DNA of 62,915 bases, from assembly GCA_049965555.1 (NCBI GenBank), contig JBMFWF010000005.1, forward strand, positions 1-62,915. The letters are read 5' to 3'. The DNA is from Candidatus Parvarchaeum sp. (GTDB lineage: Archaea > Nanobdellota > Nanobdellia > Parvarchaeales > Parvarchaeaceae). The notes beneath the pieces are model-generated. The model was not told where the DNA came from and did no database searches. It saw only the letters and a list, made by a program, of their open reading frames with translations. This document shows positions 44,259 through 53,628 of the stretch, in pieces (positions within the stretch are counted from its first letter, which is position 1; every line of letters starts with the position of its first letter). A program made the position numbers and the translations under genes.

Positions 44259-47200
44259 ATGGCCGAAGATGATGAACTTAAGAGAATTGAGCAGGATGCT
44301 TCCAAAGAGGAAAGAAAGATAGAGCAGGAAATAAAAAAAGAGGAGGTCCAGATAAAGAAAGAGGAAATGGCTCTTAAAAAGGAGGAAGAGAAGATAAAAT
44401 CACTAAAAGAAGAGTCTGAAAAAATAGAGCATGTAAAAGAGGAAGTATCCAGAAAGAAGGTAAGCGAAGTAGAGATAGAGCTGAATTTATCAGGTTTCAA
44501 GACCTTCGGTAATGCTGCTTACAACATTCTTATAAAGAAGAAAGTCCTTTTCTATTTGATTCTTATACTGGCTGTGACAGTTGGCTGGTACGTACACACA
44601 GCTAGCATTCCGGCTTTGCTGAATCCAATACAGCCAAATTCTTCGATTATAGGAAATAATTACTTAGGCATGGGCGGTTCTCTTTCAGGCTTGGATCCAT
44701 ATATATTTTATATACAAATGGAGAATATCCTTAAAACAGGTAATGTTCCAGTGGTGAATCATCTGGAGTATCTGCCTTTAGGTCTGCCGTCTAGAACGGA
44801 TGAGCTTATGGTATCCTTCTTCGGTGCATATTCTGCAAGACTTATCGATCCGATAGTAAAAGGCGCAGTTCCTATGACTTCTTTCATGTTTCTACCTGCA
44901 TTCTTTGCCATTTTTTCGGCCTTGCTTCTTTTCCTTATAGCATTGGAATTGTTTGGGGATTACTGGATAGCGAGCATAAGCGCATTTATCCTGCCGGCTT
45001 TCCTTACCTTTTTAAGCCGTTCTACTGCAGGCTTTACTCAGAAAACCTCACTTGGTTTTATGTTTATACTGCTGACAATTTTCTTCCTTTCAAAATCCCT
45101 CAAATCTAAAAGAACCAGGAGCAAAATGATCTATGGACTGGCTACTGGAATAGCCACAGGGTTGGCGACTGCAGCTAGCGGTTACAGCAACTACCCTATA
45201 CTACTGATACCTATAGTCTACATAGCAATCGTTTTGCTTGGCTATGCCAAAAAAGGAGATTTGCTGGCATACATAATGTTTGCAATCTGGGTTCCTATCA
45301 AGGTAAGCTTTGTTACGTTTACTTTCTCGGATGTTATACACAATGTTCTTTACTACCCAATGCTGTTCTCTTACGTGCTAGTTCTCTTTAAATTGATAAT
45401 TTATGACAGATACAAGAACAAACTGAAGATACCTCTTATAAATAACGGCTTTTCAGTCGCGATATACAGCGTTGTAATCTCTTTGGTTCTGGTAGCTATT
45501 ACCGGCTTGGATACATTAAAGCATGCCTTCTCAAGGATTGCATCCGAGTTCATCCACCCGTTAGGAGTAGGAATAATAAACCCTGTAAGCCAAACTATTG
45601 CAGAGTACGCTCCATTGAATTTAACCCAAAGGGCACAGGATTTCAATTTCCTTATAGGTTCATTAGGTATAAATTTCCTTTTATTCTGTGCAGGAGCAGT
45701 ATTCCTTCTTTATATTGTACTGAAAAGGTTTAAGCATTGGTATATACCTTTTCTTTTAAGCGTTCCATTTATACTAATGCTTAATGGAGGAACGTTCAGT
45801 TATAATGCAACCTCTTACTCATTTTTGTTTATATTCATAGCTTTGGATTTTATACCTTTGGGTTATTTGTTCATGCATAAAAACGAGGCAGGATCAAAAA
45901 GAGTGCTAAGCTTTGTACTGTTCCTCACCCTGCTTTCACTTATAATGTTGATAGTCGTATGGACAATGAATTCATCTGCGAACAACTACAAATACGGTGC
46001 TGTTGCCCTTGTTGTAATATTTATACTTGAGTTCGCCTTTGATAAGCAAGAAGATGCAAATTTAATCTCTTTGCTGGCGATAATACCATTCTTTTTCTTT
46101 GTGGTCACAGTTATACTTTCAAATGTCGAAAGTAGGCTTCTAGAACCAACTGAATTAGCCGCCGCAATAATAATACCTTTTGCAATAGTTTATTTCTTCA
46201 GAGGTTCAATAGACATTACGAATAGTTTCTTCAAGAACTCTTTAAGGAATATGACAGTTGTTTCTGCAGTAATAATCATAATAGCAATAGCTTTTGTCGC
46301 TGCAGATCTTCATTCAAGTCTTTTGCTGTCATACCAGACTGCACAATCTAGTGGCAGCGGATTGTTGCTTTGGGGGCCCACTTTACAGTGGGTAAGCCAG
46401 AATACCCCTGTCAATACCTCTATAATATCTTGGTGGGATTACGGTTATTGGGAGGAAGCAATAGCCAATAGAACAGCTGTAGCCGATGGAAGCAATGCTT
46501 ATGGTTATCAGTCAATGATTGCAAAGTACTTCTTTGAAGCAACCTCTCCTTACGTTTATTCGACTTATCTTCACTTTATACACCAGCCAACTTACGCAGT
46601 GATAAGCGGCAGCGAAGTAGAGAAATTCTCTGCTATATCCACAATTGCTTTGAAACCAACTTCATTTACGCCTATGTCAGAAACTAATGTTACTCTAAAC
46701 AGTCAGAATGTAGGGAATAAAAGTTACAAGTATTTATTGGACTTTGGAGATGTAAATGGTCAGATAGCTCCTTTATACTCAAATGCAACAATACCCGGTT
46801 TACCCGGAAATGCAAATAACGATCTTCTTGTAGAAATTTTAATACCGCTGAATGCAAGCAGTACTGGTGTAATAACAAGTATGGGTAACCCATACGGTAT
46901 AATATATAATGAGCTTACAACACAATTTTCTAGCCCGCTGCCTTTAGATTACAATTGTGTTTACAGCGTAGGATGCAAAGAAATAACAAATAAAGGGATA
47001 CCTGGCGGCATGATGCTTTTGAATGCTACAAATTCAGTTGATCTTCATATTGGAGGCATACCTCAAGCACCGGGTGGATATGAGGTTCTTCCAATAAACA
47101 TGTCGCAATTCGGAAATGGCCCAGGCTTATTGTATATGCCGAATGAAACTCTGGATACTTTATTTGATAAGCTTTATTTACTAAATGAAAGCATACCAGG

Positions 47201-47441
47201 TTTTAAGTTGCTTTACACGGATAACATGCCAGTAAATTCCTTGCTTAGCATAGAAAACCAGGTGCTTACAAATGTAAATGTTTATCAGATAAACTATACT
47301 GCTTTAAGCAAGTACATGCTTACTGGAGAATGTTCAGTTTCCCCTTCTGCTCAGAATTACTGTGATAATTTAAGTTATCTGCCTGCAGTATTTGCAAACT
47401 ACAGTAAACTTATAAATAATACGCCCATTAATCAATCATGA
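44259..47441 (+). CDS. aglB: Oligosaccharyltransferase AglB (STT3 family)
   Basis: DPY, RS.AGF, TIAE, WWDYGYW, ADG; multi-TM N-half and soluble C-half. Confidence 0.93.
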   Translation: MAEDDELKRIEQDASKEERKIEQEIKKEEVQIKKEEMALKKEEEKIKSLKEESEKIEHVKEEVSRKKVSEVEIELNLSGFKTFGNAAYNILIKKKVLFYLILILAVTVGWYVHTASIPALLNPIQPNSSIIGNNYLGMGGSLSGLDPYIFYIQMENILKTGNVPVVNHLEYLPLGLPSRTDELMVSFFGAYSARLIDPIVKGAVPMTSFMFLPAFFAIFSALLLFLIALELFGDYWIASISAFILPAFLTFLSRSTAGFTQKTSLGFMFILLTIFFLSKSLKSKRTRSKMIYGLATGIATGLATAASGYSNYPILLIPIVYIAIVLLGYAKKGDLLAYIMFAIWVPIKVSFVTFTFSDVIHNVLYYPMLFSYVLVLFKLIIYDRYKNKLKIPLINNGFSVAIYSVVISLVLVAITGLDTLKHAFSRIASEFIHPLGVGIINPVSQTIAEYAPLNLTQRAQDFNFLIGSLGINFLLFCAGAVFLLYIVLKRFKHWYIPFLLSVPFILMLNGGTFSYNATSYSFLFIFIALDFIPLGYLFMHKNEAGSKRVLSFVLFLTLLSLIMLIVVWTMNSSANNYKYGAVALVVIFILEFAFDKQEDANLISLLAIIPFFFFVVTVILSNVESRLLEPTELAAAIIIPFAIVYFFRGSIDITNSFFKNSLRNMTVVSAVIIIIAIAFVAADLHSSLLLSYQTAQSSGSGLLLWGPTLQWVSQNTPVNTSIISWWDYGYWEEAIANRTAVADGSNAYGYQSMIAKYFFEATSPYVYSTYLHFIHQPTYAVISGSEVEKFSAISTIALKPTSFTPMSETNVTLNSQNVGNKSYKYLLDFGDVNGQIAPLYSNATIPGLPGNANNDLLVEILIPLNASSTGVITSMGNPYGIIYNELTTQFSSPLPLDYNCVYSVGCKEITNKGIPGGMMLLNATNSVDLHIGGIPQAPGGYEVLPINMSQFGNGPGLLYMPNETLDTLFDKLYLLNESIPGFKLLYTDNMPVNSLLSIENQVLTNVNVYQINYTALSKYMLTGECSVSPSAQNYCDNLSYLPAVFANYSKLINNTPINQS

Positions 47442-48007
47442 AAGTCATAGTTTCAGGGCTAACAGCTTCAGGTAAATCAAGTGTTGCTACAAGCCTGGCC
47501 CTTAATTTTGGTATTGAGTATTTTTCAGCTAGTTCTAAATTAAAGACTCTCCTACCTAAAAAAGATTTTATGGTTTGGGAATCAAAAAAAGGCATAGAAG
47601 CAGTAAAATTTAGGTTAAAAAATCCTCAGTATGACAAGAGGCTAGATTCGTTCATTCTTTCATTTTTCAGGACAAAAAAGGACATCGTAATAGACAGCTG
47701 GGTAGCTCCCTGGAAGATAAAGGATAAGGAGACGGTAAAAATATACATAAAGGCGGATGAAAATATTAGGGCAAAGAGAGTAAGCATACGGGATAAAATA
47801 AGTTTTAGCGAAGCTCTGCGATTCATGAAGCAAAAGGATCTGCTTACAAAAAAGATCTACAAAAAAATATACGGAATAGAGATAGACAAGGATTTAACTC
47901 CATTTAATTTAGTGATCGATTCTTCAGAGCTAGACTTAGAAAGCGTAGTTAGGATATGCTCTGATTACATAATGCATAAGCAGGATAAAGATAGCAGAAA
48001 GACTTAG
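47438..48007 (+). CDS. cmk: Cytidylate kinase (archaeal type)
   Basis: SGLTASGKSS, DKRLD, RAKRV..RD, Y..IYGI.I. Confidence 0.88.
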   Translation: MKVIVSGLTASGKSSVATSLALNFGIEYFSASSKLKTLLPKKDFMVWESKKGIEAVKFRLKNPQYDKRLDSFILSFFRTKKDIVIDSWVAPWKIKDKETVKIYIKADENIRAKRVSIRDKISFSEALRFMKQKDLLTKKIYKKIYGIEIDKDLTPFNLVIDSSELDLESVVRICSDYIMHKQDKDSRKT

Positions 48008-48084
48008 TATTTACCGACGCTTTAAATTTACCTATTTCAGGGTAAAAAGCAAAGCTTTAATCTTTGAACTTATGATTAAATGAA

Positions 48085-49095
48085 ATGAAACTGCCTTTGG
48101 AGGATTTCAAGCATGAAATCTTTTCCTTGAGAGAGGAAGAAACCGATAGCAGATACGGCAAAGCTCCAAAGGACAGAAGCATAGAGGAGAAGATAAACTA
48201 CGGTTTTATACTGCTGGACAAACCGGCAGGTATAAGGTCTAAGACCGCAGCTTACATAGCAAAGAACCTTATGGCAGTATTAGGTGTCAAGAAGATGGGT
48301 TACTCAGGGACTTTAGAAGATTGAAGAAATCCCAATGTAACAGGTCTTTTGCCACTGGCCGTAAACAACGCTACGAAGGTTCTCCCAGTGCTTCTTTTTG
48401 GAGGGAAGGAATACATCGCTCTGATGCATCTGCATAGTGAAGTTGATGAGCAAGTACTTAGAGGTACGTTCAACAAATTTACAGGGAAGATAATGCAATT
48501 GCCTCCTGTTAGATCGCACGTTAAGAGGCAGTACCGGCAGAGGGAGATATACTATTCTGAAATACTGGAGATAGAAGGTAAAAACGTACTTTTTAAAGTA
48601 GGAGTCGAATCTGGAACTTATATAAGAAAGCTCATACATGACATAGGGGAAGAACTGAAAGTGGGCGCGCACATGACAGAATTGAGAAGAACAAAAGTTT
48701 CAACCTTATCTGAAAAAGACAACTTGGTCACATTGCAGGATCTAGATGACGCAGTTTATTTTTATGAAAAAGAAAATGATGCCAGGCTGTTAAATAACTG
48801 CCTTGGAAATATAGAGTCAGCAATAGACTTTTTACCAAAAGTTTTCGTTTCAGATACGGCTGTAGACCCAATATGCCATGGCTCACCTCTTGCAGTTCCA
48901 GGCATAGTCAAACTTACTGATTTTGATAAGGATCAAGTTGTAGGTATAATGACATTGAAAGGAGAAATCATAGCACTTGGTAAATCCGTGCTTTCAGCAG
49001 AAGAGATAAAAACCGTTAACAAAGGGGTTGCAGTTAAAACTGATAGTGTAATAATGGATATAGGCACATATCCCCAATACAAAAAGATTAATTAG
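48085..49095 (+). CDS. cbf5: H/ACA RNA-guided pseudouridine synthase Cbf5 (TruB family + PUA); exons 48085-48316 and 48329-49095, 332 aa after splicing
   Basis: LDKPAG, G.SGTL[D]PNVTG.LP, KEY, Q.PP.RS.VKR..R.R, GTYIRKL.HD.G, ELRRT, C-terminal PUA domain. Confidence 0.93.
48317..48328 (+). other. 12-nt BHB-type mRNA intron in cbf5 (AAGATTGAAGAA)
   Basis: Outer helix GGGA/TCCC, central helix CTTT/GAAG, bulges AG|A and AA|A; excision restores G|AT = catalytic Asp and removes the in-frame TGA. Confidence 0.88.
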
Positions 49096-49117
49096 AACTA
49101 CATATTAATTATTTTGA

Positions 49118-49191
49118 GGGGTGGTGATCTAGCTTGGTATGATGCTAGCTTCGGGGGTTAGTTGACCTGGGTTCAAATCCCAGCCACCCCA
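49118..49191 (+). tRNA. tRNA-Pro(CGG)
   Basis: GGGGTGG/CCACCCC acceptor, CTAGC-TTCGGGG-GTTAG, CTGGG-TTCAAAT-CCCAG. Confidence 0.94.
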
Positions 49192-49412
49192 ATTATTTAG
49201 TTTTGCATCTATCAAAAGACCTTAAAATATGTTTTAAATCTGCAGTACATCTCTAGATCTAACTAGCTCGTTTATGATGTTTTATGTAAAGTTTTCAATA
49301 TAAATTTATAGATATCCCCCTGAAATAACTGTATAAAAAATTATTATAGACAAATAGAAATAGTGCAAGAAGTCAAGCCAAAACATTTAAATAAAAAAAA
49401 CATAAATTAGAC

Positions 49413-50900
49413 ATGCATAAACTCTCAAAAAGCAGGCGTTCCCAGTCAGCATTGGAATACATGATGACCTACGGCTGGGCTATTCTAATTATAGTAATAG
49501 TAGCAGTTATCCTATACAGCATGGGTATCTTCAACCCAAGTTCCAGTGTAACATTCACAAGCAGTGGCTTTAGTCCATTTACAGTATCCTCTACGATATG
49601 TAGCCAGGCAGGATTAAAAATAGCAGTAAAGTTAGGGGGTTTGCCAGATACCGCGTCAGCAGCTACAATAACTGCAATATACTTTTCATCTAATACAGGA
49701 ACTACAGCTTCTACAGGAAAGCTATATAATATAACTCCTGTGACTTTATCTCCCGGTGACTCAGCCGTAATAATAGTCCCCACAGTTGCCTGTACATCAG
49801 CAGGTTCTTCATTTTCCTTATCTGCTAAATTACAGTACAGTTTTTCAACAGCGGCAGGAAATGTAATTACAAATTCTAGTGGTACTGTTACAGGCAAATC
49901 ATCCTCACAACCAATAACCGCATATGTTCCATTAACAATAACTTCTTCCTCCAGTACTTCAAACCCCTTCCAGCAAATGGTAATAGTTAATATGAGCAAA
50001 TACAATACATATGCTTCTTCCAATCTGGATAACATAGAGTTTACCTACCAAAACGGTACAATAATCCCAAGTTGGAGAGAAAATGGCACAAGCAACAATC
50101 AAGTTGTTGTTTACTGGCTTAAATTAGGCAGTTTTAACAGTGTAACAGCCCATATGGACTTCTTCTCCCCATCTTCTAATGTACTAAATACAGTAAACAC
50201 GGGAGAAGCACCACAACTATCATGTCCTAATCCAAATAATGTAGTAACTTGTTCAACTTACGCAGAGTATGATAACGGTATGAATATTTTCAATTACTAC
50301 CAAAATTTTAAAGGAGATTATTACCCTGCTGGATGGACCACTAATGATTCTGATACAACTAAATATGTTCAAGTGCATAATGGTTTTACAATAGATTACA
50401 GTCCGAATGGAGTTGGGGTTGAATTTTATTACAATAAAGAAAATTTTTCTTTACCTGCTGTTCTTGATTGGAATGGGAATTATATTTCAAATCCTACTCG
50501 TTATTGTGGATGGACAATATTAGGATGGTATAACATTACTCCTAGTTATGGCGAAAGTGCTGGATGGGCTCAATGGCAAAATTCTCCAATTTCCTGGAAG
50601 TATTATCAATATGGAAACGTTAGTCAGGCGGCTAGCAATTTTTATAATAGCACTGCATTAATAGGAGGTACAGATGTTTTTTCTCTTATCAATACCTTGA
50701 CAAAAATGAGCTACTTGCTTAATTACACTCCGGAATTAAATGTGAATCCTGAGAGTACACCTTTAAAAACAATCCTTTTTAGAAATGGAGGAGGTTGCGG
50801 CCCCGTAAGTGGAAGCGAAGTGAATGTAACTTGGGTGGATATACGAACATATCCGCCAAACGGGGTTATGCCATCAGTGACATTTGGCAGTGTTTCTTAG
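49413..50900 (+). CDS. Type IV pilin-like surface protein (class III signal peptide) with DUF2341-like domain
   Basis: RRS|QSALEYMMTYGWAILIIVIV; S/T-rich pilin domain; PFQQM...NIEF...G..IPSW.E...YWLK; C-terminal R.YPPNGVMP. Confidence 0.85.
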   Translation: MHKLSKSRRSQSALEYMMTYGWAILIIVIVAVILYSMGIFNPSSSVTFTSSGFSPFTVSSTICSQAGLKIAVKLGGLPDTASAATITAIYFSSNTGTTASTGKLYNITPVTLSPGDSAVIIVPTVACTSAGSSFSLSAKLQYSFSTAAGNVITNSSGTVTGKSSSQPITAYVPLTITSSSSTSNPFQQMVIVNMSKYNTYASSNLDNIEFTYQNGTIIPSWRENGTSNNQVVVYWLKLGSFNSVTAHMDFFSPSSNVLNTVNTGEAPQLSCPNPNNVVTCSTYAEYDNGMNIFNYYQNFKGDYYPAGWTTNDSDTTKYVQVHNGFTIDYSPNGVGVEFYYNKENFSLPAVLDWNGNYISNPTRYCGWTILGWYNITPSYGESAGWAQWQNSPISWKYYQYGNVSQAASNFYNSTALIGGTDVFSLINTLTKMSYLLNYTPELNVNPESTPLKTILFRNGGGCGPVSGSEVNVTWVDIRTYPPNGVMPSVTFGSVS

Positions 50901-53516: not shown

Positions 53517-53628
53517 GGGGTTGTAGTCTAACCAGGCAGAATAGGCGGCTCCAGCTTGTCTGGAAAAATGACGCTAAGGATGATTAAGAAGAAACCGCTT
53601 GACCCAGGTTCAAATCCTGGCAACCCCA
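53517..53628 (+). tRNA. tRNA-Trp(CCA) with 39-nt intron at 37/38 (53555-53593)
   Basis: GGGGTTG/CAACCCC acceptor, GGCGG-CT CCA G..A-CCGCT, CCAGG-TTCAAAT-CCTGG; relaxed BHB (CTCC/GAAG, one C-A mismatch). Confidence 0.9.

Follow-up and report, generated by a model that had tools for sequence, protein, structure and literature searches.

A putative 12-nt bulge-helix-bulge intron within the catalytic aspartate codon of cbf5 in Candidatus Parvarchaeum

The 62,915-nucleotide stretch analysed here (the window; contig JBMFWF010000005.1 of assembly GCA_049965555.1, forward strand) comes from Candidatus Parvarchaeum sp., a tiny acid-mine archaeon, and carries a gene for the pseudouridine synthase Cbf5, an RNA-modification enzyme, in which a 12-nt in-frame insert at 48317-48328, containing a TGA, splits the catalytic aspartate codon. 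We consider it very probable that these 12 nt are an archaeal bulge-helix-bulge (BHB) intron, which would be removed from the cbf5 pre-mRNA by the endonuclease EndA together with RtcB. This reading draws on the gene itself, on inserts of several lengths at the same codon position in relatives, on base-pair covariation and codon constraint around the insert, and on the splicing enzymes encoded in the same genome. Throughout the text, L and G numbers are our own handles for loci and genomes, and G000 is the genome of the window.

Under translation table 11, cbf5 appears as two open reading frames (ORFs) in the same frame, one at 48085-48324 (79 aa, with the C-terminus GTLED-stop) and one at 48349-49095 (248 aa). 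Pfam assigns DKCLD to the 79-aa ORF and TruB_N (from profile position 23), TruB_C_2 and PUA to the 248-aa ORF. When the TGA is read as X, the 336-residue product matches solved archaeal Cbf5 proteins along its entire length, 2aus_C being the best match (E 4.6e-85), and this alignment contains a single 4-residue insertion, located exactly at the GTLD motif. Deletion of 48317-48328 joins G|AT into an Asp codon, giving GTLDPNVTG, a 999-nt coding sequence and a protein of 332 aa; deletion of 48318-48329 instead leads to an identical product. An earlier note on this DNA had described both the insert with its two ORFs and the single 332-aa protein obtained by removing it, and the sequence, the ORF list, the translation and the alignment to solved Cbf5 agree with it on each count. 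The plus-strand gene is accordingly divided into exon 1, from the ATG to the first letter G of the Asp codon (48085-48316), the putative intron AAGATTGAAGAA (48317-48328), whose removal restores GAT and the frame and which has same-phase counterparts in relatives, and exon 2, from the AT of the Asp codon to the TAG stop (48329-49095) in the frame of exon 1. The ORF list and translation place the intronic TGA, in the exon 1 frame, at 48322-48324.

The intron and its flanks lie in a 27-nt block at 48307-48333, GGGACTTTAGAAGATTGAAGAAATCCC, whose transcript would fold locally into a BHB. In the proposed structure, the outer helix h pairs GGGA of exon 1 (48307-48310) with UCCC of exon 2 (48330-48333) over 4 bp, and the central helix H pairs CUUU of exon 1 (48311-48314) with GAAG of the intron (48323-48326), again over 4 bp. 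The 5' bulge A G|A would occupy 48315-48317 and the 3' bulge A A|A 48327-48329, and an inner helix h' (48318-48322) would consist of the one pair A48318-U48322 closing a 3-nt loop at 48319-48321. At -5.7 kcal/mol, the minimum free energy (MFE) fold of the 27-mer reproduces both 4-bp helices, h and H, together with the AAA bulge. Enforcing the 8 pairs and both bulges gives -4.4 kcal/mol, with the A48318-U48322 pair not formed. The cleavage rule given in the available text of PMC2738675, a cut after the second bulge nucleotide, predicts cuts at 48316|48317 and 48328|48329. These restore GAT and the 332-aa frame, as had been proposed from this sequence, and the same rule restores the Asp codon and the frame for every variant length described below.

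The distribution of the insert was examined in the order Parvarchaeales, sampled with 40 genomes, 39 of which had a cbf5 match. An insert of 12, 15 or 16 nt at phase G|AT is present in 29 of these 39, and uninterrupted GTLDP is found in 10 genomes of the order. Within Parvarchaeum (33 genomes), 24 carry the same 12-nt insert including the TGA and 9 have plain GTLDP; the sister genus (5 genomes) has a 16-nt insert in 4 and none in 1, and of the two genomes of a third genus, one has a 15-nt insert and the other lacks a cbf5 match. Among the Parvarchaeum copies, the flanks and most of the insert are identical, with insert variation confined to the loop at 48319-48321. A search of the whole class with the pattern GGGACYYTAGN{5,35}GAAATCC gave matches in 36 of 401 genomes, one match each (29/40 in the order and 7/361 outside it), against 6 matches for a reversed-pattern control over the class. 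All 20 distinct matched sequences that were examined fall in cbf5, between G[YH]SGTL and PxVTG.

Outside the order, 13-21 nt versions occur in these 7 of 361 other Nanoarchaeia and in one Aenigmatarchaeota genome; the earlier note had called for a survey of DPANN cbf5 genes for inserts at the Asp codon. One locus, L052 (G402), has a different 12-nt insert at the site, and the Aenigmatarchaeota metagenome-assembled genome (MAG; L069, G401) has a 13-nt insert whose exon letters differ and whose intron letters match. The lengths seen are 12, 13, 14, 15, 16, 18, 19 and 21 nt, with no bias to multiples of three. A generalised pattern applied to 101 genomes of the class of G401 found only G401 and one doubtful place in G442, with 1 match in the control. 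At the latter place (G442:C4:56111-56154), a 24-nt gap follows GGAACACTGG, and the pairing register of the central helix is not preserved, so this may represent either another form of the intron or a coincidental match.

A separate observation concerns cbf5 matches in other Nanoarchaeia, namely those of G028 (L032), G038 (L121), G122, G133, G214, G226, G244 and G318 (L111-L120), which lack an insert at the Asp codon and contain one in-frame TAA or TGA away from it. These could be interruptions elsewhere in the gene or could reflect the edges of the matches.

Comparison of the variants lends further strength to the proposed structure. Each of the 20 distinct pattern-found variants was modelled with an outer and a central helix of 4 pairs apiece and with 3-nt bulges on the 5' and 3' sides, and standard base pairs were found in all 160 modelled cells (20 variants by 8 pairs). 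The central helix shows double compensatory changes at two of its pairs, H2 (U-A in 13 variants, C-G in 7) and H3 (U-A in 17, C-G in 3), and further variation at H4 (U-G in 11, U-A in 9); the outer pair h1 is G-C in 13 and G-U in 7. Within Parvarchaeum, genome G048 combines an exon change from ACT to ACC with a compensatory insert change from GAAG to GAGG. The inner closing pair is complementary in 19 of 20 variants, in four pair types (A-U 10, G-C 6, C-G 2 and U-A 1), L052 being the exception, and this complementarity of the inner ends supports the predicted single closing pair A48318-U48322. In longer relatives the inner helix has 2-4 pairs (1-4 bp in relatives overall), and the 16-nt form, with an inner GUG/CAC and a 3-nt loop, is a textbook hBHBh' motif. 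In 18 of 20 variants the MFE fold keeps all 8 modelled pairs, and with them the central 4-bp helix and the 3' bulge; the 5' bulge, which depends on the inner closing pair, is rarely reproduced. The overall geometry, two 3-nt bulges on opposite strands with a 4-bp helix between them, fits the window sequence and all 20 variants. AAA is invariant in 21 of 21 variants, a count to be read with the fact that the search pattern itself fixes AAA and the first two letters of the 5' bulge.

A stop codon (TGA, TAA or TAG) is present in the exon 1 frame of all 21 insert variants and in the other two frames of none (0/21). The variants with such a stop include the window (48322-48324), L051, L052, L069, L102, L103, L107, L112, L116, L119 and L151-L154. 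Shuffling the letters of the insert gives a mean chance of 0.35 per variant of a stop in the upstream frame, and the pattern search behind 20 of the 21 variants was independent of stops. This conservation suggests selection for early termination on the unspliced message, and the intron may serve as a fail-safe against its translation or may regulate how much Cbf5 is made.

Constraint at the RNA level is also visible in the exons. Codon usage was tabulated for 38 unique insert-bearing and 61 unique insert-less genes. Gly is encoded by GGG in 37/38 of the former and 5/61 of the latter, Leu by NTA in 37/38 and 19/61, Asp by GAT in 38/38 and 39/61, and Pro by CCY in 38/38 and 19/61, respectively. 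The next three codons vary freely in both sets, and the exon synonymous sites that belong to the structure are frozen only in insert-bearing genes. A second test, free of pattern bias, used the 24 unique genes of the 12-nt Parvarchaeum type: the alignment has 73 columns in which the amino acid never varies and could be written with four or more codons, and only two of them use a single codon, namely the GGG and TTA of the structure. The ratio of nonsynonymous to synonymous substitution rates (dN/dS) lies between 0.06 and 0.22 on both sides of the insert (0.10-0.22 for exon 1) in the 7 of 14 comparisons in which dS was computable; every dS value obtained was above 1.2, and in the remaining 7 of 14 saturation made NG86 fail. 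Because synonymous sites are otherwise saturated and dN/dS is low, the gene appears functional and the 27-nt block appears to be held constant at the RNA level. Judged from these sequence comparisons, the insert is neither an artefact nor the mark of a pseudogene.

The assembly that contains the window comprises 783,591 bases in 28 contigs, with 92 % completeness and 36 % G+C. The nearest named records belong to Candidatus Parvarchaeum acidiphilum ARMAN-4 (84 % identical across the C-terminal ORF) and ARMAN-5 (79 %) and to MAGs labelled Parvarchaeota or Nanoarchaeota, which upholds the assignment of the host to DPANN made from the letters alone. Both enzymes that splicing would need are encoded, as the earlier note had anticipated. 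EndA is represented by one gene only (G000:C7:14376-14861, 177 aa, no internal stops), and its residues 12-176 align without an insert to positions 7-170 of 1a79, the alpha4 enzyme from M. jannaschii (E 8e-32). RtcB is encoded at G000:C2:86688-88016 by a single open frame of 489 aa with no internal stops and hence carries no intron of its own. The genomes of L069 and L052 likewise have a single EndA match each. In the available text of the corresponding papers, the EndA enzymes of ARMAN-4 and ARMAN-5 are classed as typical alpha4 (Fujishima et al., PMC3239211), and ARMAN-4 EndA is reported to lack the L3 loop, which in the EndAs of DPANN is tied to broad specificity (Kaneta et al., PMC5829648). 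The host genome also has intron-containing tRNA genes, for example a tRNA-Trp(CCA) at window positions 53517-53628 with a predicted 39-nt intron at the canonical position, which ARAGORN reports when introns are allowed and which is absent from its default-run listing. As a side observation, a stretch of about 1.5 kb (G000:C7:14376-15820, L001) holds EndA, a 241-aa ORF with an S1 domain and Nop10, so that the gene for a splicing enzyme and that for a Cbf5 partner are neighbours.

In the proposed mechanism, the single alpha4-type EndA would cut after the second nucleotide of each bulge of the folded transcript, and RtcB would join the exons to give the GAU of the catalytic aspartate and the 332-aa Cbf5. 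An unspliced mRNA would be translated only as far as the intronic UGA, and no full-length, catalytically dead protein would be made. Cbf5 output would depend on splicing.

Several points weigh against an EndA-removed intron. The MFE fold of the 27-mer pairs A48315 with U48322 across a 6-nt loop, in which the canonical 5' bulge and the one-pair inner helix are absent; of the fold put forward in the earlier note, helices h and H and the AAA bulge were recovered, and the canonical 5' bulge is not thermodynamically preferred for the 27-mer. The 27-mer also folds only marginally better than its shuffles (z = -1.79, with 11 of 200 shuffles equalling it). Since folding energy alone is weak, the claim of a more-than-chance structure rests on the comparison with relatives, where the proposed helices did covary; within Parvarchaeum itself the helices are invariant apart from G048, and the covariation comes from more distant relatives. 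The sequences compared share kinship and are not independent, and for 7 of the 38 insert-bearing genes in the codon counts, the pattern used to find them already prescribes some of the letters being counted. The sole EndA found is of the alpha4 type; such enzymes are described as strict, and the inner helix here has one pair. Finally, a search for RNA sequencing runs that contain 48085-49100 listed none, and we infer the spliced mRNA, and with it cutting by EndA, joining by RtcB and the part played by the stop codon, from sequence.

Among the alternatives, the insert might be translated, with the TGA read through or recoded (as Trp, Gly or Sec, or by a suppressor) into a protein with the 4-residue insertion GTLE-D-x-R-N-PNV. 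An insert of 12 nt does keep the frame, and TGA recoding exists in other small-genome lineages. We nevertheless hold this to be extremely improbable: the frame is shifted by homologous same-phase inserts of 13, 14, 16 and 19 nt, and because so many lengths do so, translation through the inserts is excluded. In close relatives the triplet that precedes the TGA would encode D, N, H, Y or A between invariant flanks, so that many species would have no Asp in the motif if the insert were translated, and the insertion would fall on the catalytic Asp itself. In the host, moreover, TGA terminates 115 of 375 long ORFs, ARAGORN detects 45 tRNAs but no UCA anticodon among them, and the EndA and RtcB genes are free of internal stops.

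The interruption might instead reflect a gene that is split into 79-aa and 248-aa polypeptides, or a pseudogene without catalytic Cbf5. The two ORFs obtained with table 11 would fit this, split genes are known in Nanoarchaeota, and Gar1 was not found with Pfam PF04410 in the 92 %-complete genome. Such an outcome is highly unlikely in the face of an interruption kept in 29 genomes of the order with both halves under purifying selection. The exon 2 segment ahead of any codon at which translation could restart (48329-48348) is conserved as protein among relatives, with synonymous variation, and the TTG at 48349 is not kept as a start, being CTG or TTA in L011, L012, L013, L015 and L017. The catalytic motif would be lost in a split gene, and Nop10 is present in the genome. 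A third route, by which the 12 nt would be skipped through ribosomal bypassing or frameshifting or removed by EndA-independent RNA cleavage, is compatible with the fact that an in-frame Asp codon only needs 12 nt to be ignored, and the weak 5' half of the BHB speaks in its favor. We regard it as highly improbable, since no matching take-off and landing codons that restore the frame were seen on reading the sequence, one mechanism would have to cope with 12 to 21 nt, and what is conserved is the BHB geometry (AAA bulge, 4-bp helix and AGN bulge) in 20 of 20 pattern-found variants. Removal of a BHB intron by EndA and RtcB is the reading carried forward below.

To place the insert in an evolutionary context, a tree of 99 unique Cbf5 proteins from 150 loci with the site was built in IQ-TREE (LG+G4, SH-aLRT only), with proteins below 200 aa dropped and identical ones merged; seven of its rows were chosen for carrying the pattern. 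Parvarchaeales form one clade (support 99), within which the 9 insert-less Parvarchaeum form one clade of their own (SH-aLRT 93). For the insert-less members of the order, this fits one loss in the 9-member clade and another in G042. Insert-bearing genes of other Nanoarchaeia are placed among insert-less relatives, and the tree requires at least 8 state changes, 5 of them forced by well-supported branches. It fits an old ancestry with many losses as well as repeated gain or transfer and cannot tell these apart. A broader and decidedly tentative idea, which we think has a minority chance of being right, is that introns have occupied the cbf5 Asp codon repeatedly or since ancient times across TACK and DPANN, with the intron kept as a switch that would gate synthesis of this rRNA/tRNA pseudouridine synthase by the cell's EndA/RtcB capacity for tRNA splicing and, in Parvarchaeum, act through a plain alpha4 enzyme on the smallest workable BHB of 12 nt. 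If true, archaeal mRNA splicing would not, as has been proposed, depend on heterotetrameric enzymes of relaxed specificity.

The neighborhood of cbf5 in the window consists of a cytidylate kinase gene upstream and, downstream, tRNA-Pro and a 495-aa ORF (49413-50900) without a Pfam family, with no homing endonuclease seen among these neighbors; a search of 47000-50000 against Rfam gave nothing above the gathering score except the tRNA-Pro. The N-terminus of the 495-aa ORF is a charged stretch followed by a hydrophobic helix, and we take it to resemble an archaeal type IV pilin-like signal. A genome-wide BHB scan for other split genes, also advised in the earlier note, gave no excess over its control and no second candidate that stands out. 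With a loose filter, 985 ORF-restoring places among 63,221 motif candidates in G000 were uninformative. A stricter scan (closing pair, intron of 11-40 nt and 75 open codons on each side) returned 46 places and recovered the cbf5 site, and sliding the junction by 1-3 nt as a control gave 42-48 places, so there is no excess over chance.

A BHB intron in crenarchaeal cbf5 pre-mRNA was reportedly described by Watanabe in 2002 and by Yoshinari in 2006. The available text of Yokobori 2009 (PMC2738675) places crenarchaeal cbf5 introns in Desulfurococcales and Sulfolobales with lengths of 16-44 bp, links their mostly relaxed motifs to a heterotetrameric (alpha-beta)2 endonuclease, calls Nanoarchaeum cbf5 intron-less and gives 11-175 nt as the range of tRNA introns. 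The proposal that the insert occupies the site of the crenarchaeal introns is confirmed by the phase given there, between letters 1 and 2 of the catalytic Asp codon. The two also share the cleavage rule, a length too short to encode anything and a patchy distribution with lineage-specific loss. They differ in lineage, which here is DPANN (Parvarchaeales, other Nanoarchaeia and one Aenigmatarchaeota genome), and in size, with 12 nt here and 12-21 nt in relatives as opposed to the 16-44 bp published. The view that 12 nt lies near the physical minimum seems reasonable, this being the shortest length seen, below that of the published cbf5 introns and near the 11-nt tRNA bound. The enzymes differ as well: both bulges here are of 3 nt and 4 bp apart and would be served by a single alpha4-like EndA, whereas the crenarchaeal motifs described in that text are mostly relaxed and go with an (alpha-beta)2 enzyme. 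The proposed link between cbf5 introns and (alpha-beta)2 endonucleases does not hold in G000, with its one 177-aa alpha4-like EndA.

Relative to archaeal tRNA BHB introns, which EndA and RtcB remove and whose size range is given above, the geometry of helix, bulge, helix, bulge and helix is alike and the size is near the lower end of their range, whereas the cbf5 intron lies in an mRNA without a tRNA body and has an inner helix of one pair. The closest parallel outside Crenarchaeota is the BHB intron in the 5' untranslated region of Haloferax volcanii HVO_1309, an EndA substrate that is likewise located in an mRNA; it differs in being untranslated, whereas the Parvarchaeum intron lies within a codon (Schwarz et al. 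2020, PMC7714728, available text). According to that paper, no BHB intron of this kind besides its own and the one in crenarchaeal cbf5 had been reported up to then, which leaves crenarchaeal cbf5 as the sole coding-sequence case named. Our literature searches, judged mostly by title and abstract, found no publication on a DPANN cbf5 intron, and a 2026 splicing review is silent on cbf5.

Introns in protein genes are very rare in archaea, and occupancy of this site in ARMAN-type and other DPANN genomes extends the phenomenon to a second superphylum. Lineages with a single alpha4-like endonuclease offer a test of the idea that mRNA splicing arose with relaxed-specificity heterotetrameric enzymes, and a natural substrate of 12 nt would define the minimum RNA needed by the endonuclease. 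The finding also has a bearing on studies of genome reduction in DPANN, where table 11 callers see two ORFs and an essential enzyme of RNA modification might in consequence be counted as absent or defective. Overall, set beside the known systems, this is a known kind of element at a known site, in a lineage from which it was unreported, of a size below that of any published cbf5 intron and with an endonuclease type unexpected under the published hypothesis.

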